From sequence record NC_007021.1: 64,000 nucleotides of DNA; one strand, given 5' to 3'. Origin of the DNA: Staphylococcus phage Twort. A program made the translations under genes and the position numbers. The notes under the pieces are model-generated. The model was given only the letters and a program-made list of their open reading frames with translations. It made no database searches and was not told the DNA's origin. The first letter of the stretch is position 1, and each line of letters starts with the position of its first letter. Shown in pieces: positions 200-61,169 of the stretch.

Positions 200-1165
200 A
201 CAACGACTAAAAAGAAAACCCATGAAGAATTTAAAAGTGAGTTAGATTATAAATTTAATAATGAATTTATTCTTTTAAGTAATTATAATGGTATAAATTC
301 ACGTATTAAAGTAAGACATAAACACTGTGGATACGAATTTGAACCTATAGCTAAATATTTATTAAGGGACGGAAAATGTAAAAGATGTTCAGATAACAAG
401 AAAGGTAAAAAAAGAAGAAAAACACATGAACAATTTTTAAAAGAAGTACAAGAAATTCACGGTAATAATTATCAAGTTTTAACTAAATATAAAACTAGTC
501 ATGATAAAGTAAAAGTTAAGCATTTATCTTGTGGTTCGGAGTATAATATTAGACCAGATTCATTATTAAGAGGCAGTCAATGTAAGACTTGTCTTAATAT
601 TAAGTTATCTAAGGATAACTTAAAGACAACAAAAGAGTATAAAAAAGAAATAGAATATATAACTCAAGGGGAATATATTCTTATAGGAGAATACACAGGA
701 GTTAAAAATAAGGTAAAGGTTAGACATAATTTATGTGGTAACGAGTACTTAGTTTATCCTTTTATGTTTTATCGAGGAAGAAGATGTCCTAAATGCAATT
801 ATTCTAGAGGTGAGAGATTAGTAGAGGTTGTTTTGAAATCCCTAAATATTGATTTTGAACCTCAGAAAAAATTTGAAGGATTAAAAAATATAAACCTATT
901 ATCTTATGATTTTTACTTACCTGAATATAATGTCTTGATTGAGTATCAAGGACAACAACATTATGAACCTGTAGAGCTTTTTGGAGGAGAAGATTACTTT
1001 TTAAAACAACAAAAAAATGATAAAATTAAAAAGGAATTTTCTAAAAACAACAATATTTATTTATTAGAAATACCTTATACTAAGTATACTTTTGATAGTG
1101 TTAAAGAGGAAATAGAAGTAATGTTAAGTAATGTAAAGCAAGGGACTACTAACCAAAAGAAGTAG
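200..1165 (+). CDS. Intron-encoded endonuclease: three ~45-aa Cys-rich zinc-ribbon-like repeats plus a C-terminal Vsr/DUF559-like PD-(D/E)XK nuclease domain; start codon unclear
   Basis: Frame 2 is open from 164 to the stop at 1165. The repeats ..KV(R/K)H..CG.E(Y/F)..P......G.C..C occur three times. C-terminal D..(n)..IEYQGQQH matches the Vsr/DUF559 IEvDG..H signature. RBS AAGGAGGGG at 188-196. No in-frame ATG/GTG/TTG before 764. Confidence 0.6.
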   Translation, partial: TTTKKKTHEEFKSELDYKFNNEFILLSNYNGINSRIKVRHKHCGYEFEPIAKYLLRDGKCKRCSDNKKGKKRRKTHEQFLKEVQEIHGNNYQVLTKYKTSHDKVKVKHLSCGSEYNIRPDSLLRGSQCKTCLNIKLSKDNLKTTKEYKKEIEYITQGEYILIGEYTGVKNKVKVRHNLCGNEYLVYPFMFYRGRRCPKCNYSRGERLVEVVLKSLNIDFEPQKKFEGLKNINLLSYDFYLPEYNVLIEYQGQQHYEPVELFGGEDYFLKQQKNDKIKKEFSKNNNIYLLEIPYTKYTFDSVKEEIEVMLSNVKQGTTNQKK

Positions 1166-1286
1166 TCATGATATAGTCTAAACCCTTTAAAATACTAGGA
1201 AACTAGGGGTAGTAATTGGGAGATGTCATTTTCCAAATAGAACAAAAAATAATTCTGGTATACGAGGATACTATATTTCACAAATG

Positions 1287-2144
1287 AATGCTGTCTGGAT
1301 TTCAGCTGACCAACTTGTAGAAAAAGAACTTAATACCGATTCTAAACAAGCATTTTACAATTATGTACTGGGTATGCCTTATGAAGATTTAAAAATGCGT
1401 GTATTACCAGAAGACATATTTGAAAACAAATCTAAAATTGCAAAAGAACAATTATTTGATAGAGATAGATATAAGTATATATCCTGTAGTGTTGACTGGG
1501 GTAATTTCCACTGGTGCTGTGTACATGGTATGACAGAAGATGGTCATGTAGACTTAATACGACTATTTAATGTAAAGAAAAATAGCAGACCAGATTTAGT
1601 AGAGGCAGACTTAGAAAGAATTATATTAGAGTTTTCTAAATATGACCCCGATATTATTATAGCTGACAACGGAGATTCAGGAAATAACGTTCTTAAATTA
1701 ATCAATTTCTTTGGTAGGGAACGAGTATTTGGATGTACGTATAAATCTAGTCCACGTTCTTCAGGACAATTATATGCACAATTTAATGAAAACACAAACA
1801 CCGTAACCGTAGACAAATTAATGCACAATAAGAACTATATACAGGGACTAAAAACAGGTAGAATAAGTGTGTACCAAAAACAAGATGAAGAACTTAAAAC
1901 ATACTTAAAACATTGGCAAAATGTTTTAATCATGGATGAAGAAGATGAGAAAACAGGAGAAATGTATCAAGTAATTAAGCGTAAAGGAGACGACCATTAC
2001 GCTCAGAGTGCAACGATAGGATATATTGGACTCACTCGTATTAAAGAATTACTTGAAACTTCTAAAGGAACATCTTTTGACTCTACATTTGTTTCTACTG
2101 ATTATAATCAAGGTGATGGAAATACATATTACCTTAACGATTAA
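1287..2144 (+). CDS. terL: Terminase large subunit, 3' exon (nuclease domain)
   Basis: RNase-H-like nuclease motifs (..IIADNGDSG.., ..GDDHYAQS..) typical of TerL C-termini. Frame is open back to 1191, consistent with a spliced exon rather than an independent gene. Confidence 0.75.
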   Translation, partial: NAVWISADQLVEKELNTDSKQAFYNYVLGMPYEDLKMRVLPEDIFENKSKIAKEQLFDRDRYKYISCSVDWGNFHWCCVHGMTEDGHVDLIRLFNVKKNSRPDLVEADLERIILEFSKYDPDIIIADNGDSGNNVLKLINFFGRERVFGCTYKSSPRSSGQLYAQFNENTNTVTVDKLMHNKNYIQGLKTGRISVYQKQDEELKTYLKHWQNVLIMDEEDEKTGEMYQVIKRKGDDHYAQSATIGYIGLTRIKELLETSKGTSFDSTFVSTDYNQGDGNTYYLND

Positions 2145-13386: not shown

Positions 13387-14214
13387 ATGGACTCTTATTT
13401 ACGAAAAGAATTAGAGCCAAGGCTACGTACAGTATTACATAATTGTTATATTATAGATGAAGTTTTAAAAGACTTTGATGAACAAGCTCGTGATTCTTTT
13501 AAAGAATCATTTTGTGGTAAGGATGCACCTAATGAGGTTACTATAGGATATGATTTTCCTAAGTTTAAAACCAATCATGGTGCGCATTATTTAATACAAC
13601 TAGATGAGGGTAGTGAAACACAAAACTCACTAGGTAATGTACAAGGTTCTTATACAGAGGCTAACGATGATACCAAAAGGGAATTAGTCACAGCAAAAAA
13701 AGTAAATAATAGGTTAGTATTTACAGTATCCAAACCTATACATGAGGTTTTATATGTAGAGGATATAGCATTTTCCTCATCAGATGAAGTGCAGATTGAG
13801 GATAATACATTTTCTTTTAATTATGAAGGAAACGAGGACTATGAGAATTACAATGCTATTATTACTTATGTAGAGAAGACTAATAACACTAAAGGTATTG
13901 TTAAAGGTTTTACAGCTGAAGAGCGTTGTATTATTGTAGGACTATCTTACAATGTAGATGTTGCAAGATGCTTAGATGCTATTCTAAAGATGTTATTAAT
14001 ATCTATGAGGGATGGTATAGAAGAGCAACAATCCCTACAATTACAGAATCTAAGTTTTGGTACTATGGCACCTATTATAGATGATGGTGAGAGTCCTATC
14101 TTTGGTAGACCTACTACTATTAAGTATACAGTATCCCATGACTTAGATTACACAATTACACAAGATATTAATAAACTTACTTTCAAGGAAAGGAAAGATA
14201 AGAATGGCAAGTAA
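13387..14214 (+). CDS. tail completion / sheath-proximal protein candidate
   Basis: 275-aa ORF immediately before the sheath gene. Confidence 0.4.
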   Translation: MDSYLRKELEPRLRTVLHNCYIIDEVLKDFDEQARDSFKESFCGKDAPNEVTIGYDFPKFKTNHGAHYLIQLDEGSETQNSLGNVQGSYTEANDDTKRELVTAKKVNNRLVFTVSKPIHEVLYVEDIAFSSSDEVQIEDNTFSFNYEGNEDYENYNAIITYVEKTNNTKGIVKGFTAEERCIIVGLSYNVDVARCLDAILKMLLISMRDGIEEQQSLQLQNLSFGTMAPIIDDGESPIFGRPTTIKYTVSHDLDYTITQDINKLTFKERKDKNGK

Positions 14215-14433: not shown

Positions 14434-16197
14434 ATGGCAAAAGATATATTTCCACGTAGACCTATCCAACGTCCCCATGCTTCAATCGAAGTAGATTCAT
14501 CTGGTATTGGTGGTTCAGCTAGTAACAGTGAAAAAATTCTATGTTTGATTGGTAAAGCAGAGGGCGGGGAGCCTAATACAGTCTACCAAGTACGAAATTA
14601 TGCACAAGCTAAATCAGTATTTCGTTCTGGTGAATTACTAGATGCAATTGAGTTAGCTTGGGGTTCTAACCCACAATACACAGCAGGTAAAATCCTAGCT
14701 ATGCGTGTAGAAGATGCTAAAGCATCTCAGTTAGAAAAAGGTGGACTAAGAGTAACGTCTAAAATCTTTGGTTCCGTATCTAATGACATTCAAGTAGCAT
14801 TAGAAAAAAATACAATCACAGATTCTTTACGTTTACGAGTTGTTTTCCAAAAAGATAATTATCAAGAAGTATTTGACAACTTAGGTAACATCTTCTCTAT
14901 TAACTATAAAGGTGAAGGTGAAAAAGCTACGTTCTCAGTAGAGAAAGATAAAGAAACACAAGAGGCAAAACGTTTAGTATTAAAAGTAGATGAAAAAGAA
15001 GTTAAAGCCTATGAACTAAATGGTGGTGCTTACTCTTTCACTAATGAAATCATCACTGACATTAACGAATTACCTGACTTTGAGGCAAAATTATCACCAT
15101 TTGGAGATAAAAACCTTGAGTCACGTAAGTTAGATGAGGCTACAGATGTAGATATTAAAGGTAAAGCTGTTTATGTTAAAGCCGTATTTGGTGACATTGA
15201 GAACCAAACTCAATATAACCAATATGTTAAGTTCGAACAGTTACCTGAACAAGCATCAGAACCTAGTGATGTTGAGGTACATGCTGAAACTGAATCGGCT
15301 ACGGTGACAGCTACATCTAAACCTAAAGCAATTGAACCGTTCGAATTAACTAAACTTTCTGGAGGTACTAATGGTGAACCACCAACATCTTGGTCAGCTA
15401 AGCTAGAGAAGTTTAAAAATGAAGGTGGATACTATATCGTACCTTTAACTGACCGTCAATCAGTACATTCAGAGGTAGCAACATTTGTTAAGAATCGTTC
15501 TGATGCAGGAGAGCCTATGCGTGCTATTGTAGGTGGGGGTACTTCTGAAACTAAAGAAAAGTTATTTGGACGACAAGCTATTTTAAACAACCCTCGTGTT
15601 GCTTTAGTAGCTAACTCTGGTAAGTTTGTTATGGGTAATGGTCGCATCTTACAAGCACCTGCTTACATGGTAGCTAGTGCTGTCGCAGGTTTAGTTAGTG
15701 GATTAGATATTGGTGAGTCAATCACGTTTAAACCATTATTTGTTAACAGCTTAGACAAAGTTTACGAATCAGAGGAATTAGATGAACTTAATGAAAATGG
15801 TATTATTACTATTGAGTTTGTCCGTAACCGTATGACTACAATGTTCCGTATTGTAGATGATGTTACAACATTCCCTGATAAGAATGACCCTGTTAAGTCA
15901 GAAATGGCTTTAGGGGAAGCAAATGACTTCTTAGTAAGTGAGCTTAAAATCTTACTTGAAGAACAATATATTGGTACACGAACTATCAATACAAGTGCTT
16001 CACAAATTAAAGACTTTGTTCAATCTTATTTAGGACGTAAGAAACGTGATAATGAAATTCAAGATTTCCCACCTGAAGATGTTCAAGTAATTATTGAAGG
16101 TAATGAAGCTAGAATTAGTTTAACTATCTTCCCAATTAGAGCTCTTAAGAAAATTTCAGTATCACTTGTTTATAGACAACAAACATTACAAGCCTAA
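14434..16197 (+). CDS. tail sheath protein
   Basis: 587-aa ORF with strong RBS AAGGAGA, followed by the tail-tube gene; codon usage of a highly expressed gene. Confidence 0.85.
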   Translation: MAKDIFPRRPIQRPHASIEVDSSGIGGSASNSEKILCLIGKAEGGEPNTVYQVRNYAQAKSVFRSGELLDAIELAWGSNPQYTAGKILAMRVEDAKASQLEKGGLRVTSKIFGSVSNDIQVALEKNTITDSLRLRVVFQKDNYQEVFDNLGNIFSINYKGEGEKATFSVEKDKETQEAKRLVLKVDEKEVKAYELNGGAYSFTNEIITDINELPDFEAKLSPFGDKNLESRKLDEATDVDIKGKAVYVKAVFGDIENQTQYNQYVKFEQLPEQASEPSDVEVHAETESATVTATSKPKAIEPFELTKLSGGTNGEPPTSWSAKLEKFKNEGGYYIVPLTDRQSVHSEVATFVKNRSDAGEPMRAIVGGGTSETKEKLFGRQAILNNPRVALVANSGKFVMGNGRILQAPAYMVASAVAGLVSGLDIGESITFKPLFVNSLDKVYESEELDELNENGIITIEFVRNRMTTMFRIVDDVTTFPDKNDPVKSEMALGEANDFLVSELKILLEEQYIGTRTINTSASQIKDFVQSYLGRKKRDNEIQDFPPEDVQVIIEGNEARISLTIFPIRALKKISVSLVYRQQTLQA

Positions 16198-16208
16198 TGT
16201 TTTATCTC

Positions 16209-16250: not shown

Positions 16251-16271
16251 TTTATGGAGAGTGAATAATTA

Positions 16272-17563
16272 ATGGCATCTCAAGCTAAACAGACAGTCCA
16301 TACTGGTAATACCGTAATGCTTATGATTAAAGGTAAACCTGTAGGTAGAGCTCAATCAGCGTCTGGTACACGTTCTTACGGTACAGAAGGGGTATATGAG
16401 ATTGGTTCTATCATGCCACAAGAACACGTTTACCTTAAGTATGAAGGTGAATTAACAGTAGAACGTCTACGAATGAAAAAAGAGAACTTTGCAAAATTAG
16501 GATATGCTTCTCTTGGTGAAGAAATCCTTAAGAAAGATATTATTGACATTGTTGTTATTGACAACTTGACTAAAGAAGTGCTTGTGTCATATCACGGTTG
16601 TAGTGCTAATAACTATGAACTTCGTAGCTTCACATAGTAATATGTGTCGAAAAACTTTTCTAAACAGGGAAGCCTAAGTCTATTAGATATGGTAATCCTG
16701 TGCTAAATCAGATTAATAATCTGTAAATGCCAAACGACTAACTGAAACCTACTTGATAATTCAAGGGGAGTAAGTGTAGAGCCAAGCGGTAGAAGTTTTA
16801 AGTAATTATTATGTAAATCTTCTTTAAATCGAAAAGAAAAGAGTCCTTTTTTAGGATTGTGATATAGTCTGAACATATATGGAAACATATAGCAGTTCCT
16901 AGAGAACGGGCAGTGAGTAGCGACCACTGTTGAACATAATGGATGAAGCATGGAACACTAATGAAATAACTACTGAAAGCATAAATAATTGTGCCTTTAT
17001 ACAGTAATGTATATCGAAAAATCCTCTAATTCAGGGAACACCTAAACAAACTAAGATGTAGGCAATCCTGAGCTAAGCTCTTAGTAATAAGAGAAAGTGC
17101 AACGACTATTCCGATAGGAAGTAGGGTCAAGTGACTCGAAATGGGGATTACCCTTCTAGGGTAGTGATATAGTCTGAACATATATGGAAACATATAGAAG
17201 GATAGGAGTAACGAACCTATTCGTAACATAATTGAACTTTTAGTTATTTATCAGCATAAAATTATCTTGTGCCTTTACACAGTAATGTGTATTGAAAACT
17301 CCTTTAATTCATGGGAAATCTTAATTAAGACAATCATGAGCCAAGCCTAGCAATAGGAAGGTGCAACGACTAGAGAAAGGGTAGCTTACTATTATAGGTA
17401 GTAAGTGAGAACCGAGTATCGTACGCTCAAGTGAGTGGAAATGGGGAGTGTCCTAGAGTAACGACTAGGATAATGATATAGTCTGAACATATATGGAAAC
17501 ATATAGAAGGATAGGAGTAACGAACCTATTCGTAACATAATTGCAGATAAAGCTTCACGATAG
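16272..17563 (+). CDS. tail tube protein gene split by three group I introns; ~139 aa when spliced
   Basis: Inferred exons: 16272-16607, 16942-16982 (41 nt), 17235-17257 (23 nt), 17544-17563. Exon 1 ORF (112 aa) follows the sheath gene. Splice sites are inferred from alignment of the intron copies, the U-before-5'SS and G-before-3'SS rules, and frame continuity (84 nt = 28 codons to TAG at 17561-17563). Confidence 0.55.
16608..16941 (+). mobile_element. Group I intron 1 of the tail-tube gene (ORF-less)
   Basis: P/Q/R/S-like core elements; 3' end ..GUUGAACAUAAUG. Confidence 0.55.
16983..17234 (+). mobile_element. Group I intron 2 of the tail-tube gene (ORF-less)
   Basis: Starts aaataattgtgcc..; R ..gcaacgacta..; 3' 75 nt identical to intron 3, ending ..cgtaacataattg. 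Confidence 0.55.
17258..17543 (+). mobile_element. Group I intron 3 of the tail-tube gene (ORF-less)
   Basis: Starts aaaattatcttgtgcc..; same conserved 3' core; ends ..cgtaacataattg. Confidence 0.55.
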
Positions 17564-17572
17564 TATCTTATT

Positions 17573-17601
17573 AGACCTAGAATATTCTAGGTCTTTTTTT
17601 A
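17573..17601 (+). terminator. Rho-independent terminator after the tail-tube gene
   Basis: agacctagaatattctaggtct followed by TTTTTTT. Confidence 0.7.
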
Positions 17602-17653: not shown

Positions 17654-18967
17654 ATGGATAAGAAAATATTAAAAGAAGCTAGTAGATTAGGGATAAAAAT
17701 TATTAAAGAGGATAAAATAACAAGAAATAAAACACATGTAGGAGTAATTCTTAGAGGTAAGTTTAAAGGGTGTGAATGCCATGTATCTTACGAATATTTA
17801 AAAAACAAGAATAATAACACAGAATTTGTAATTACCATTTTAACTGATAGAGGTAAGAAACAGTATTTTAATAAAGTAGCAGAAGAAAGGGGATATAAAA
17901 TACTAGAATACCCCAAAGAGTTACTAACGGTAAATAGATGTAAACTTTTATCACCCAAAGGTAATACATGGGATGTACAATGGAACTCCTTTGAAAACAA
18001 TAGGAACAGTAACTGCCCTAAAGATAAATTAAAAAGCATAGGAGAGAGAATAGTAGCAACTATATTAAGAGAAAATAATATAGATTTCACCTCTGAAAAA
18101 GGTATATATACGGGTCTTAAAGTTAGACAGAGGTTAGATTTCTATTTCATAATAGGAGGACAAAAATACGCAATAGAATACATGGGTAGACAACACACAG
18201 AAGAAGTAAAAGGAGGATGGGGAGTATCACTAGACAGAATTATATTTTTAGATAAATTAAAAGAAGAGTATTGTCGAAGTAATGGAATTAAATTACTACA
18301 GGTGTGGTACCCTATGGAAGATAAGGAAAGTATATTCACAGAAATAAAAGAATTTTTAGACATACCTTTAAAATATACCCCCGAAGTAGATTATATATCT
18401 AGGCTAAATGACAACGAAGAAGAAATTTTAGAATACTACAAAAACCATTCTGCAGAGGAAACATCAAACAAATACGGGATTACTATTAACCAAGTTAAAG
18501 GAATATTAAATAGGACTAAATTTACGAAAAGATTTAAAAGTGTGGAAGGTATTAATATTAAGTCAGGTGAAAAGTTACAGTTTAATACTTTAAAAGAAGC
18601 ACAAGAATACTTTAAAGATAGTAAAGGTGTGGACACTATAAGGGCATGCGTAATAGGAAAAAGAAAAACAGCATGTGGGTATATATGGAGATACAAAGAC
18701 GAAGATTTTTCAGAATTATCTACAAAAATAACAGATAAGAGAATAAAAGTATTTAAGGCAATAAAAGGGAGTGAAGTAATAACACTTCCATTACAAATGT
18801 TATCTATAAAGACAGGGCTTGCTATACAAACAATTACTAAATTAGCAAGAAATAAAGGAAAAACAAGCAAAGGATATGAAATTATAGAAGTAACAGGAGA
18901 AGAGAAAGGAGAGATTTTGGATAGTATAAGTTTTGTAGACTATGTGCAAAGTTTAAATAAAAAGTAA
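17654..18967 (+). CDS. Free-standing homing-endonuclease-like protein: Vsr/DUF559-type PD-(D/E)XK nuclease domain plus C-terminal helix-turn-helix DNA-binding module
   Basis: Central segment ..RLDFYFIIGGQKYAIEYMGRQH..CRSNGIKLLQVWY.. is paralogous to the C-terminus of the 200-1165 intron ORF. C-terminal ..GKRKTACGYIWRY.. is an IENR/NUMOD-like DNA-binding motif found in phage homing endonucleases. Confidence 0.6.
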   Translation: MDKKILKEASRLGIKIIKEDKITRNKTHVGVILRGKFKGCECHVSYEYLKNKNNNTEFVITILTDRGKKQYFNKVAEERGYKILEYPKELLTVNRCKLLSPKGNTWDVQWNSFENNRNSNCPKDKLKSIGERIVATILRENNIDFTSEKGIYTGLKVRQRLDFYFIIGGQKYAIEYMGRQHTEEVKGGWGVSLDRIIFLDKLKEEYCRSNGIKLLQVWYPMEDKESIFTEIKEFLDIPLKYTPEVDYISRLNDNEEEILEYYKNHSAEETSNKYGITINQVKGILNRTKFTKRFKSVEGINIKSGEKLQFNTLKEAQEYFKDSKGVDTIRACVIGKRKTACGYIWRYKDEDFSELSTKITDKRIKVFKAIKGSEVITLPLQMLSIKTGLAIQTITKLARNKGKTSKGYEIIEVTGEEKGEILDSISFVDYVQSLNKK

Positions 18968-56473: not shown

Positions 56474-57193
56474 ATGGCAACTTATGGTAAGTGGATTGAC
56501 CTTAATAATGAGGTCACTCAACTAGACGAAAATGGAAAAAATAAACTCTATAAGGACAAAGAAGCCTTAGAAGAGTACTCAAAATATATTGAAAAGAATA
56601 CACGTAATTTTGATAATGAAGTAGAGCGTGTACGTACCTTAACTAAAGAGGGTACTTATGATAAGGTGTTTGATAGTATTCCTGATACTATTATTGAAGA
56701 AATGACAAAGTTAGCTTATAGTTTTAACTTTCAATTTCAGAGCTTTATGGCATGTCAAAAGTTCTATGAATCATATGCTGTGACACAGTATGATAAAGAT
56801 GATAATCCTATTTTTGTAGAAGATTATGAACAACATAATGTACGTGTTGCGCTTTATTTATTTCAAGACGATTATGTTAAAGCTAGAGAAATGTTAATTC
56901 AATTAATGGAACAGACATTACAGCCCGCTACACCAGTATATCTTAACTCAGGGTTAGGTAAACGTGGTGAATTGTCATCTTGTTATTTATTTATTGTAGA
57001 TGATACTATCGAATCTATTAACTTTATTACAGACTCCGTACGACAAGCATCTAAAAATGCAGGAGGTTGTGCAGTAGACTTAACAAGATTACGCCCTAGA
57101 GGAACAGAGGTTAATGGTGTTCCTAATGCTAGTAAGGGTGTAATACCATTTGCAAAAAATATCGAGCAGAGCGTATCATATTTCAACCAGGGT
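56474..57193 (+). CDS. nrdE: Ribonucleotide reductase class Ib alpha subunit, exon 1
   Basis: Ends ..SYFNQG at a U; splicing to 57623 gives ..FNQGGKREGSAVCYL.. Confidence 0.75.
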
Positions 57194-57622
57194 AAACAAT
57201 TCTGCCCCCTATATTAGTAATAGTGTAGGTTAAAAAACTTCCTTAATTCATGGGAAATCTCCTTGACTTTTATTATAAATTTTGGTATAGTAAAATGAGA
57301 AGGAGATAATCATGAGCAAGATAACCAATAGCAAAGAAACCCAAAAAAGTACCTAACGCTACTAAAAGTATTTACCACCATATAAAAAGTAAAAGAAGAT
57401 GGAAGTCATTAAATCACTTAATGAATTGGTAATTATCTTGTGCAACGACTAGAGAAAAGATAGTTTATTGTTACAGGCAGTAAATGAAGACTGAGTATCG
57501 TACACTCAAGTGAGTGGAAACAGGAAGTATCCTAGAGTAACGACTAGGATAATGATATAGTCTGAACATTGTAGGTGACTACAAGAAGGTAAGGAGTAAC
57601 GAACCTTATCGTAACATAATTG
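57194..57622 (+). mobile_element. Group I intron 1 of nrdE (ORF-less)
   Basis: P ..aattcatgggaaatc..; R ..gcaacgactag..; S tgatatagtc; ends ..cgtaacataattg; 5' region matches tail-tube intron 3. Confidence 0.65.
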
Positions 57623-58648
57623 GGAAAACGTGAAGGCTCTGCAGTATGTTATTTAAATATATTCCACCCAGATATTCATGAATTTTTAAGTTCTAAAAAA
57701 ATTAATGCTAGTGATAAAGTAAGATTAGACACATTATCTATTGGTGTAACAATACCAAATAAGTTTATGGAATTACTTAAAGAAGATAAATACTACTATA
57801 CATTTAATGTATATGATGTTAAACAAAAATATGGGTTTACATTAAATGAAATAAACATGTCCGAGTATTATGATATATTTGTGAATGATGATGATATTAG
57901 AAAAGAAAAATATTATACAAGAGATATAATGACTGACATTGCAAGAACACAACTAGAGTCAGGATACCCTTATGTTTTCTACATTGATAACGCAAATGAC
58001 AATCACCCTTTGAAGAAACTAGGTAAAGTTCAAATGTCTAATTTATGCTGTGAGGTGACACAGCTACAAGAAGTATCCGACATATTCCCATATTTACAAT
58101 CACATAATGATACTATTGGGAATGATGTTGTGTGTACGTTAGGTTCATTAAATTTAGTGAATGTTGTAGAAAAAGGATTGCTTAAAGAATCCGTAGATAG
58201 TGGTATTCGTTCGTTATCTAAAGTAACGGATTTAATGAACGTTCCATTTTTACCAAGTGTTCAGAAGGCAAACGATGAGCTACGAGCTATAGGTCTTGGA
58301 GCAATGAACTGGCATGGACTTCTAGCAAAGAATATGCTTAGTTATGGTTCTAGGGAATCTCTAGACATTGCTAATAGTTTATTTAGTGCTATTAGATACT
58401 ACTCTATTAAGTCTAGTATGGAACTAGCTAAAGAAACTGGTAAAGTTTTTAAAGGTTTTAAAGAATCAGAATACTATACTGGAGAAGTGTTTAGTTCATA
58501 TATTCAAAAGTCACATGAACCTAGAACTAAAAAAGCTAAAAAAGTACTAGAAAAGGTATATATCCCTACGGAAGAAGACTGGAACTCTTTAAGCAAAGAT
58601 GTAAAAGAGTATGGTATGTACAACGGATACTTAAATAATCTTGCACCT
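57623..58648 (+). CDS. nrdE: Ribonucleotide reductase alpha subunit, exon 2
   Basis: GKREGSAVCYLNIFHPDIHEFL (active-site loop) ... ends ..NNLAP. Confidence 0.75.
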
Positions 58649-59735
58649 TATATATTAGGGCGTGTATAAGAATACATGATAACTCTTTCGAATTGCTGGA
58701 ACACCCTTAGAGCCTAATAAACTACAACGTAACTAGAAATGGTAAGCGTGAATGTTTAAAAATTATTGGGATTGGGCAATCAGCATCTAAGATTCTAAAT
58801 AATTATAATTAAAATAAAGTGTAACAAAGGAAGATATATTATAGAGGAGTTATGGAAAGAAATACCTGGGTTTAATTCATACATGATTAGTAATAAAGGT
58901 CAGGTTTACTCAAGAAAAAGAAATAAGATACTAGCTTTACGAACAGATAAAAATGGGTATAAAAGAATATCTATTTTTAACAATGAAGGTAAAAGAATTC
59001 TATTAGGAGTTCATAAGTTAGTTCTCTTAGGTTTTAAAGGTATTAATACTGAAAAGCCTATACCTCACCATAAGAATAATATTAAAGATGATAACAGATT
59101 AGAAAATTTGGAATGGGTTACAGTTAGTGAAAATACCAAGCATGCATATGATATAGGGGCTTTAAAATCACCTAGGAGAGTTACATGTACTCTTTATTAT
59201 AAAGGAGAACCTTTATCATGCTATGACTCGTTGTTTGACTTAGCTAAGGCTTTAAAAGTAAGTAGAAGTGTAATAGAGAGTCCTAGAAATGGTTTGGTGT
59301 TATCTACTTTTGAAGTAAAAAGAGAACCTACAATACAAGGACTACCTTTAAATAAAGAGATATTTGAGCATAGTTTAATTAAGGGCTTGGGTAATCCTCC
59401 TTTAAAAGTGTATAATGAAGATGAAACCTACTACTTTTTAACTTTAATGGACATAAGTAAGTACTTTAATGAATCATACTCTAAAGTACAACGAGGATAT
59501 TATAAAGGTAAGTGGAAAAGTTATATTATAGAACATATTGATTTTTATGAGTATTACAAACAAACACATTAATTATAATTACAAGAATAAAGTTCAACGA
59601 CTATCCCGTTGCTGGGAGTACACTCAAGTGAGTGGAAGTGGAAGAGGTCTTACTTAAGTAAGATGTGATATAGTCTGGACGTATATGGAAACATATAGAA
59701 GGTAAGGAGTAACGAACCTTATCGTAACATAATCG
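58649..59735 (+). mobile_element. Group I intron 2 of nrdE, carrying an HNH endonuclease ORF
   Basis: R ..caacgactatc.. at 59594; S gtgatatagtc at 59660; ends ..cgtaacataatcg; exon junction restores LAP|TQSISY. Confidence 0.65.
58838..59572 (+). CDS. Intron-encoded HNH homing endonuclease (I-HmuI-like); start uncertain (ATT/ATA ~58838-58841, or ATG 58883)
   Basis: N-terminus ..LWKEIPGFNSYMISNKGQVYS.. matches the conserved EWKDIKGYEGHYQVSNTGEVYS start of I-HmuI-type enzymes. HNH motif ..PHHKNNIKDDNRLENLEWVTVSENTKH.. . RBS AAAGGAAG at 58827-58834. Confidence 0.65.
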   Translation: MIEELWKEIPGFNSYMISNKGQVYSRKRNKILALRTDKNGYKRISIFNNEGKRILLGVHKLVLLGFKGINTEKPIPHHKNNIKDDNRLENLEWVTVSENTKHAYDIGALKSPRRVTCTLYYKGEPLSCYDSLFDLAKALKVSRSVIESPRNGLVLSTFEVKREPTIQGLPLNKEIFEHSLIKGLGNPPLKVYNEDETYYFLTLMDISKYFNESYSKVQRGYYKGKWKSYIIEHIDFYEYYKQTH

Positions 59736-60104
59736 ACACAATCCATTTCGTATGTACAAAATGCAACTTCTAGTATTATGCCAGTACCTTCACCTATTGA
59801 AAATAGACGCTATGGTAACATGGACACATACTATCCTATGCCGTTTATGTCACCAATTACACAATTTTTCTACGAGAGTGAAACAGCATATAAATTAGAT
59901 AATAAACGTATTATTAATACAAGTGCGGTGATTCAAAAACACGTAGACCAAGCTATTTCTACTATTCTTTACGTAGAGTCTGAAATACCAACTAATAAAT
60001 TAGTAAGTTTATATTATTATGCTTGGGAAAAAGGTTTAAAATCTTTATACTATACCCGTTCACAAACATTAAAAGTTATTGAGTGTGAATCTTGTAGTGT
60101 ATAA
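59736..60104 (+). CDS. nrdE: Ribonucleotide reductase alpha subunit, exon 3
   Basis: TQSISYVQNATSSIMPV.. and ..SLYYTRS.. (radical-transfer Tyr pair); C-terminal CESC. Confidence 0.75.
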   Translation, partial: TQSISYVQNATSSIMPVPSPIENRRYGNMDTYYPMPFMSPITQFFYESETAYKLDNKRIINTSAVIQKHVDQAISTILYVESEIPTNKLVSLYYYAWEKGLKSLYYTRSQTLKVIECESCSV

Positions 60105-60119
60105 GAAAGGAAATCAGTA

Positions 60120-61169
60120 ATGGAACTTAAGAGACAAGTAGATAAATACTATAAAGATAAAATTAAAAACTTAGAAGCTGTTAACTGGAACGAGGAAGAT
60201 GAAATGGCTAATAACTTTTGGGAGTTAGCCACAACTTCCTTCTGGTTACCAGAAGACTTTGATATTTCACGAGATGTAAGCTCATGGAATAAATTAACAG
60301 ATATTGAAAAAGATACTTATAAAAAAGTTTTAGCAGGTTTAACAGGGTTAGATACTAAGCAAAGTGTTGAAGGAATGTCATTAATTGCACATCATGAACC
60401 TAGAACAAGATTTGCTCAAGTATACACAGCCTTTGATTTTTATGAATCAATCCATGCTAAGTCCTATAGTCATATTTTTACTACTTTATTATTAAATAAA
60501 GAAACAAATTACTTATTAAATGAGTGGGTAGAACAAGAACCACACCTAAAGAAAAAAGCACAGTATATTGGATATTTTTATGAAAAATTAGAACAGCCTA
60601 ATCCTAGTACATTTGATAGATATATGGCTAAAGTAGCCAGTGCTTTTTTAGAAAGCGCATTATTCTATTCAGGGTTCTATTATCCTCTACTACTATCAGG
60701 TCAAGGGGTTATGGTTCAATCAGGAACTACTATCTACAAGATTACACAAGATGAGGCATATCATGGTGTAGGAGTAGGTTATACCGCACAGTTAGATTAC
60801 CAAGAACTTACAGAAGAAGAGCAGTCTAAAGCTGATGCTCTTATGTACGAATTATTAGAAGTACTATATGAAAATGAAGTATCTTACTCACATATGTTAT
60901 ATGATAAGTTAGGATTAACGGAAGATGTTATTAGATATGTTCAATATAACTTCAATAGAGCTTTAGCTAACTTAGGGTTTGATGATTACTTTAATCCAGA
61001 ACCTTTTAATCCTATTGTAAATAACCAAACTAATGTAGATAAACTTAGTAATGCAGATTTCTTTAGTACAAAAAATGATTATAAACGCTCTATGAATACT
61101 AAAGACCTTAAAGATGAAGATTTTAAGTTTGATGATAAAGAATCTACTTTAGTAGATGAATTTTTATAA
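60120..61169 (+). CDS. nrdF: Ribonucleotide reductase beta subunit
   Basis: Ferritin-like di-iron motifs ..ESIHAKSYSHIF.., ..DEAYHGV.. Confidence 0.85.
   Translation: MELKRQVDKYYKDKIKNLEAVNWNEEDEMANNFWELATTSFWLPEDFDISRDVSSWNKLTDIEKDTYKKVLAGLTGLDTKQSVEGMSLIAHHEPRTRFAQVYTAFDFYESIHAKSYSHIFTTLLLNKETNYLLNEWVEQEPHLKKKAQYIGYFYEKLEQPNPSTFDRYMAKVASAFLESALFYSGFYYPLLLSGQGVMVQSGTTIYKITQDEAYHGVGVGYTAQLDYQELTEEEQSKADALMYELLEVLYENEVSYSHMLYDKLGLTEDVIRYVQYNFNRALANLGFDDYFNPEPFNPIVNNQTNVDKLSNADFFSTKNDYKRSMNTKDLKDEDFKFDDKESTLVDEFL

Follow-up and report, generated by a model that had tools for sequence, protein, structure and literature searches.

Group I introns of the phage IA2 type have been described in the td, nrdB and nrdD/sunY genes of phage T4 and in the DNA polymerase genes of phages SPO1 and Bastille. 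The T4 and Bastille introns usually contain an open reading frame (ORF) for a homing endonuclease, occur one per gene, and interrupt genes of nucleotide metabolism or replication. The orf142 gene of Staphylococcus phage Twort contains introns of the same ribozyme class and mechanism but, unlike the T4 and Bastille genes, it carries three ORF-less introns together in a late structural gene. This gene is located at positions 16272 to 17563, on the plus strand, of a 64,000-nucleotide (nt) stretch of Twort DNA from record NC_007021.1. The whole stretch is referred to here as the window.

In PMC10136302, orf142 is described as having three group I introns of class IA2 and a 23-nt exon, and skipping of an exon is mentioned. 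According to PMC11878797, orf142 was later recognised as the tail tube protein gene, and exon skipping is described there as well. Self-splicing of orf142 is attributed to Landthaler & Shub 1999 (PNAS 96:7005), as cited in PMC10136302 and PMC11878797. Crystal structures of the Twort orf142-I2 ribozyme have also been published (PDB 2RKJ is listed), and the literature gives the ribozyme construct as nucleotides 9-250 of orf142-I2, co-crystallised with CYT-18. This construct fits the 252-nt intron 2 delimited below. The "orf142" of PMC7497331 is a mere gene number in a different phage and was set aside as irrelevant to the Twort gene.

The DNA between positions 16200 and 17650 of the window shows 100% identity to GenBank AF132670.1 ("Staphylococcus phage Twort unknown genes"). 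The coding sequence (CDS) of this record consists of four joined pieces, 359..1650, which correspond to 16272..17563 of the window with an offset of 15913, and it bears the note "orf142; contains group 1 introns". The locus is almost certainly the orf142 / tail tube protein gene of Staphylococcus phage Twort with three self-splicing group I introns. An initial annotation of this DNA, made from the letters alone, had proposed a tail-tube structural gene cut by three group I introns that lack ORFs, and had pointed to the three-intron orf142 of Twort; this identification was borne out by the identical DNA and the same outer CDS coordinates. Between the introns I1-I3 of Landthaler & Shub 1999 / AF132670.1 and the present locus, the DNA, the CDS limits, the 142-amino acid (aa) protein and the 23-nt exon are the same, and no difference was found. 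The initial annotation departs from the published gene only at the 5' splice site of intron 1 (16607 instead of 16616), which is its sole error of interpretation; the interpretation is otherwise supported. The feature is real, its interpretation is correct after a correction of 9 nt, and it was already known.

Exon-intron structure and product of orf142

The gene is composed of four exons and three introns, all on the plus strand. Exon 1 (16272..16616, 345 nt) contains codons 1-115 and ends in ...CSANNY. It is followed by intron 1 (16617..16941, 325 nt), exon 2 (16942..16982, a micro-exon of 41 nt), intron 2 (16983..17234, 252 nt), exon 3 (17235..17257, a micro-exon of 23 nt), intron 3 (17258..17543, 286 nt) and exon 4 (17544..17563, 20 nt), which includes the TAG stop codon at 17561-17563 and whose end corresponds to position 1650 of AF132670.1. 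Intron 2 is orf142-I2, the crystallised Twort ribozyme, and exon 3 is the exon skipped in the reaction described in PMC10136302. The exons (345 + 41 + 23 + 20) add up to 429 nt, which encode 142 aa and a stop codon, and all three introns are located in the last 84 coding nucleotides. A U precedes every intron, and the last nucleotide of every intron is a G (G16941, G17234 and G17543). Both micro-exons had been given with the same lengths in the initial annotation. They are confirmed by the splice model and by the DNA of phage vB_SpsM-DH2, exon 2 also by the homologue alignment and the 23-nt exon also by the literature.

Two deposited proteins are identical to the spliced product, namely AAD31276.1 (the 1999 record) and QIW89104.1 ("tail tube protein [Staphylococcus phage Twort]"). 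Phage vB_SpsM-DH2, the closest relative in the phage collection, has no insertion at any of the three Twort sites, and the spliced Twort gene aligns with its DNA gap-free across all three junctions. The predicted P1 hairpins pair U16616 with G16624, U16982 with G16991, and U17257 with G17269, with the same geometry for all three introns.

The initial annotation had ended exon 1 at U16607, which gives an exon 1 of 336 nt, an intron 1 of 334 nt and a product of 139 aa, although 142 aa would be expected from the name of the gene. That product stays in frame, a U also precedes the splice site at 16607, and the Rfam match for intron 1 begins at 16606. The reading frame, the clean TAG and the terminator after it were recognised correctly, but the length of the product was not. 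A collection of about 15 billion proteins does not contain the 139-aa sequence but holds two deposits for Twort of the 142-aa sequence, and 16616 is the sole boundary that yields the latter. In an alignment with tail tube proteins from four genes without introns (Staphylococcus phage Clo6, Listeria phage P100, Enterococcus phage A2 and Bacillus phage Z3), the homologues carry three residues (NNY, ETY, VSY and DTY, respectively) at a gap of the 139-aa product. Placing the 5' splice site 9 nt too early deletes three conserved residues, and the 139-aa model therefore fails the end-to-end alignment with homologues that the initial annotation had proposed as a check; the corrected model passes it, with 61-85% identity and no internal gaps. 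In addition, the P1 hairpin pairs U16616 and not U16607 with G, and the alleles of DH2, Silviavirus and Sepunavirus read AATAACTAT right up to the intron 1 junction. The 139-aa model, which is left with practically no probability, is refuted by exact lookup, homologue alignment, P1 pairing and the DH2 DNA. By these four independent tests, the last of which is the comparison with an intron-less allele, the end of exon 1 is 16616.

The unspliced ATG-initiated ORF from 16272 comprises 121 codons and ends at a TAG at 16635-16637. This stop codon had been placed inside intron 1 in the initial annotation, and it does lie there. The figure of 112 codons given for the ORF does not hold, as the unspliced ORF has 121 codons and exon 1 has 115.

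The 142-aa product matches PDB 8q01 ("Tail tube protein", 142 residues) over residues 1-140 with E = 2e-78, together with ten further PDB entries, and matches phrog_985 with E = 6.6e-73. No Pfam model matches the tail tube protein in a Pfam scan. Homologues were detected by tblastn in 755 phage records, and in 677 of these a single region accounts for 80% or more of the query. The order of the sheath gene followed by the tube gene is kept in four other phages, from four genera, that were compared. Judged by full-length homology and by the place of its gene right after the sheath gene, the orf142 product is a tail tube protein of the Herelleviridae, and the tail-tube identity given in the initial annotation agrees with the exact match to the Twort protein.

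Group I cores, fold and splicing

An Rfam scan of the whole window returned exactly three matches above the gathering score, all to Intron_gpI (RF00028; gathering score 50) and all on the plus strand. Intron 1 is matched at 16606-16892 (63.6 bits, E = 8.7e-14), intron 2 at 16973-17197 (97.4 bits, E = 6.5e-24) and intron 3 at 17248-17506 (100.9 bits, E = 5.8e-25), each over the full length of the model (1-253/253). The three group I cores that had been read on the plus strand within 16272-17563, after a truncated structural ORF, are real and far beyond chance. The initial annotation had based them on P-, Q-, R- and S-like strings and a terminal motif repeated in three copies. All three copies contain the S string and the terminal motif, but the P, Q and R strings are literal in copies 2 and 3 only; intron 1 carries the variants aaacagggaa (P), aatcctgtgc (Q) and ccaaacgacta (R). 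Intron 1 is the most divergent copy, with 58-61% identity to introns 2 and 3. Introns 2 and 3 show 71% identity overall and are identical at 73 of the final 75 nt.

No plus-strand ORF of at least 30 aa occurs inside any of the three introns, which had been called ORF-less in the initial annotation; at this ORF length, none of them contains on its plus strand the endonuclease ORF that characterises a mobile intron. Minus-strand ORFs of 82, 67 and 48 aa lie over the introns at 16703-16951, 17026-17229 and 17392-17538, respectively. These ORFs match no PHROG family, and they have the motif FYMFPYMFRLYH in common because they cross the repeated 3' segment of the introns. They are most likely not genes.

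The fold was examined in a set of six tail-tube introns composed of Twort introns 2 and 3, three Silviavirus introns (from one phage) and one Sepunavirus intron, each with 9 nt of upstream exon. The consensus fold of these six introns recovers helices P1, P2, P3, P4, P5, P6, P8 and the P9 region, while P7 was entered by hand as a pseudoknot. Standard pairs fill 98.3% of the paired cells, compared with 35-42% when the partners are slid by 1-3 columns, and compensatory double changes are found in 31 of the 68 pairs, compared with 3-7 when slid; neither value was reached by any of 500 shuffles. The U-G pair at the splice site is invariant in all six related introns, and the three adjoining P1 pairs covary. 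This pattern is expected if the guide sequences of related ribozymes have become adapted to the differing contexts of their exons. P7 (GACUA/UAGUC) is invariant among the six introns and thus uninformative for covariation. For the lineage of introns 2 and 3, the covariation strongly supports the predicted fold.

The introns thus combine a core above the curated threshold, a P1 U-G wobble at the 5' splice site, a terminal omega-G and a restored reading frame, with compensatory changes in the intron 2/3 lineage. By blastn, the intron 2 core directly matches intron regions of T4 type as well as the Bastille intron; this is consistent with the IA2 assignment, which itself comes from the literature.

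A few minor points qualify the three-intron structure. The score of intron 1 is lower (63.6 bits), and the covariation result covers the intron 2/3 lineage. The junctions of intron 1 are ambiguous by 1 nt from the DNA comparison alone, because a G is present on both sides; this ambiguity is resolved by the rule of a U at position -1, the terminal-G rule and the P1 pairing. Splicing itself rests on published experiments, as reported in the papers that cite them. Overall, nothing substantive speaks against the structure.

The gene could also be read as unspliced, with the 121-aa ORF (16272-16637) as its product and the downstream cores as inert relics. An older Twort annotation lists exactly this ORF as RefSeq ORF106 (YP_238555.1, "virion structural protein"), and many related GenBank records annotate exon 1 alone. 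Such a product is extremely improbable. The 121-aa ORF would swap the conserved C-terminal 27 residues for ELRSFT, and the solved tail tube protein has 142 residues. All three cores are intact, with scores that exceed the gathering threshold and with compensatory changes, and the splicing of orf142 is published according to PMC10136302 and PMC11878797. As for the deposited records of Twort, the public annotation is inconsistent, in that one lists the unspliced ORF106 and the spliced 142-aa protein is given by AF132670.1 and by a second, longer Twort contig.

In the proposed splicing of orf142, a single pre-mRNA would carry the three ORF-less group I introns of the phage IA2 type. Each intron is predicted to fold into a group I core, and P1, formed by pairing of the last exon bases with an internal guide sequence, would place a U-G wobble at the 5' splice site; both the cores and the pairing are seen in the present comparison. 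By the established mechanism, which the anatomy of the introns suggests for orf142, exogenous guanosine would attack after the P1 U, and the freed 3'-OH of the exon would then attack after the terminal G to join the exons. Three such excisions would join the exons of 345, 41, 23 and 20 nt into the 429-nt frame, a result that the sequence of the joined exons bears out.

The 5' splice site of intron 2 can also be joined to the 3' splice site of intron 3, by which exon 3 is skipped, because introns 2 and 3 are nearly identical at their 3' ends and lie 23 nt apart. PMC10136302 and PMC11878797 both report this skipping between introns 2 and 3, and it might be taken as regulated, functional alternative splicing that yields a second tail-tube isoform, in addition to the full-length protein. 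The 73/75 identity at the intron ends is compatible with such a role, which is nevertheless very unlikely. Computed skipping of exon 3 causes a frameshift and an early stop (...TTESIR*), so that the truncated form of 130 aa loses the conserved FSYL...DK tail, and relatives that lack introns or have them elsewhere make the full-length form only. Exon skipping appears to be a side effect of having two almost identical ribozymes 23 nt apart.

Related introns in Twortvirinae and in nrdE

Tail-tube introns were compared among Twort, vB_SpsM-DH2, CIFT_MFB_MRSA16, phage 110 and phage 812. Numbered on the spliced gene, the insertion sites are 328, 345, 355, 374, 386, 391 and 409, that is, no fewer than seven different sites in an 81-nt stretch at the 3' end of the 429-nt gene. 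The introns of the other Twortvirinae are related to those of Twort, lie in a homologous gene and form the same 3' cluster, with sites 345 and 409 in common. They differ from those of Twort in number and positions, and site 386 is found in Twort only, within this small sample. Related introns occupy different sites; for example, Twort intron 2 is located at site 386 and its relatives at site 391.

Four group I introns were identified in the tail tube gene of Silviavirus CIFT_MFB_MRSA16 (PV360683.1; positions 627-2172 of the extracted locus), at sites 345, 374, 391 and 409. These introns are 333, 274, 257 and 253 nt long, and each scores between 70.7 and 98.2 bits. The exons are 345, 29, 17, 18 and 20 nt long, and their predicted splicing yields a clean 142-aa product. 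In PV360683.1 only the exon-1 ORF is annotated, as "virion protein 5". A paper on three related CIFT phages merely tabulates Rfam matches and never mentions the tail tube gene, and no description of the spliced gene model of this four-intron allele was found in the searchable literature.

Two introns each are present in Sepunavirus phage 110 (sites 345 and 391) and in Kayvirus 812 (NC_029080.1; sites 355 and 391). The first intron of phage 812 (967-1273 of the extracted NC_029080.1 locus) follows GAG ACA T. Restoring T|GG CAG requires it to end at an A (position 1272) and not at the next G, so that the terminal G is not reconciled in this intron. The record NC_029080.1 labels the exon-1 ORF "truncated protein".

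Phage vB_SpsM-DH2 (OM373548.1; 2901-3201 of the extracted locus) contains one group I-like element of 301 nt after spliced nucleotide 328, which is 17 nt upstream of the intron 1 site. This element scores 44.4 bits (E = 4.6e-10), below the gathering score.

Another gene of the window, nrdE, is also split. Its three parts are located at 56474-57217, 57620-58669 and 59778-60104 and flank two group I introns, at about 57200-57622 and about 58670-59777. The second gap holds an ORF of 229 aa (58883-59572). The core motifs of orf142 recur in the first gap, at 57245-57622, where the P, Q, R and S strings and the terminal motif are present as in orf142-I3. The 3' half of this gap is closely similar to orf142-I3, and one hairpin is altered on both of its arms. 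With a relaxed Rfam threshold, no further group I element was found in the whole window, nor in 56500-60500 at E values up to 1. The two nrdE introns are missed by Rfam yet are present, as indicated by the motifs and by the split nrdE gene.

These two are the published nrdE introns of Twort, reportedly described by Landthaler et al. in 2002 (NAR 30:1935). The literature places an endonuclease ORF in nrdE-I2 and gives the nrdE introns a common origin with the orf142 introns. The two groups of introns belong to the same phage and the same intron lineage. They differ in their host gene, in the endonuclease ORF of nrdE-I2 and in their detection, as RF00028 finds neither of the nrdE introns.

Neighbouring genes and possible trans homing

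The gene directly upstream of orf142 (14434..16197, plus strand) encodes a tail sheath protein of 587 aa, which matches Pfam PF04984 (Phage_sheath_1) with E = 2.3e-10. Likeness of this product to the major tail sheath protein of A511 is recorded in AF132670.1. The ribosome-binding site of orf142 (GGAG) is located at 16256..16259, as annotated at 343-346 of AF132670.1. The stop codon of the gene is followed by an intrinsic terminator on the plus strand (17573..17601), composed of a 9-bp stem, a 4-nt loop and a T-run, which is conserved in vB_SpsM-DH2; the scan for terminators placed the hairpin with its T-run at 17573-17594. Upstream of the sheath gene, a plus-strand ORF of 275 aa (13387-14214) matches Pfam PF23932 "Phage termination protein" (SP10_terminator) with E = 1.1e-106. 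This match is in keeping with the usual block of contractile-tail genes.

A free-standing nuclease-like gene, "orfc" (17654..18967, plus strand), encodes a protein of 437 aa. This protein matches phrog_7140 ("intron encoded nuclease") over its full length with E = 4e-168 and gives weaker matches to HNH and homing-endonuclease PHROGs. No sequence match to it was found in Pfam, NCBIfam or PDB. The gene begins past the stop codon and the terminator of the tail tube gene and adjoins the three ORF-less introns. Homologues of the protein were detected in 232 phage records, and the gene is found at the same position in Silviavirus and in phage 812. An intron-less Kayvirus has a gene annotated "intron-encoded nuclease" at this position as well, and from a reading of its sequence DH2 appears to lack the gene. 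The phage 812 homologue was considered as a truly intron-encoded nuclease; this was rejected, as it starts past the tail-tube stop codon and the terminator despite its "intron encoded" annotation.

Trans or collaborative homing, in which a free-standing endonuclease nearby mobilises introns that are ORF-less or defunct, has been described for mobE/I-TevIII of T4 (PMC2790892; reviewed in PMC3984707), and the orf142 locus likewise contains ORF-less introns about 100-350 nt from a free-standing nuclease-like gene. The likeness is in arrangement only; the nuclease is putative and matches nothing in Pfam, NCBIfam or PDB. The locus differs from trans homing of the mobE type in that an intron-less Kayvirus also has a nuclease gene at this place. 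It is conceivable, though unlikely, that the nuclease-like gene mobilises the introns of Twort and of its Twortvirinae relatives in trans. Should the nuclease cleave tail-tube alleles that lack introns, close to their 3' end, repair with an intron-bearing genome as template would transfer the introns, and introns that disrupt the target would also shield their carrier from cleavage. Such homing could explain the at least seven sites in 81 nt, the four-intron Silviavirus allele and the related introns at different sites.

The analysis of orf142 has a few small practical consequences. Splice sites judged by eye from aligned repeats can miss by whole codons and yet stay in frame, and for this reason alignment with homologues is needed. 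Public annotation of the gene is inconsistent, since YP_238555.1 and many related records show only the truncated exon-1 ORF, and the Rfam model overlooks both nrdE introns of the same window. Among phage genes interrupted by more than one group I intron, orf142 of Twort is the classic case, and the finding has been public since 1999.

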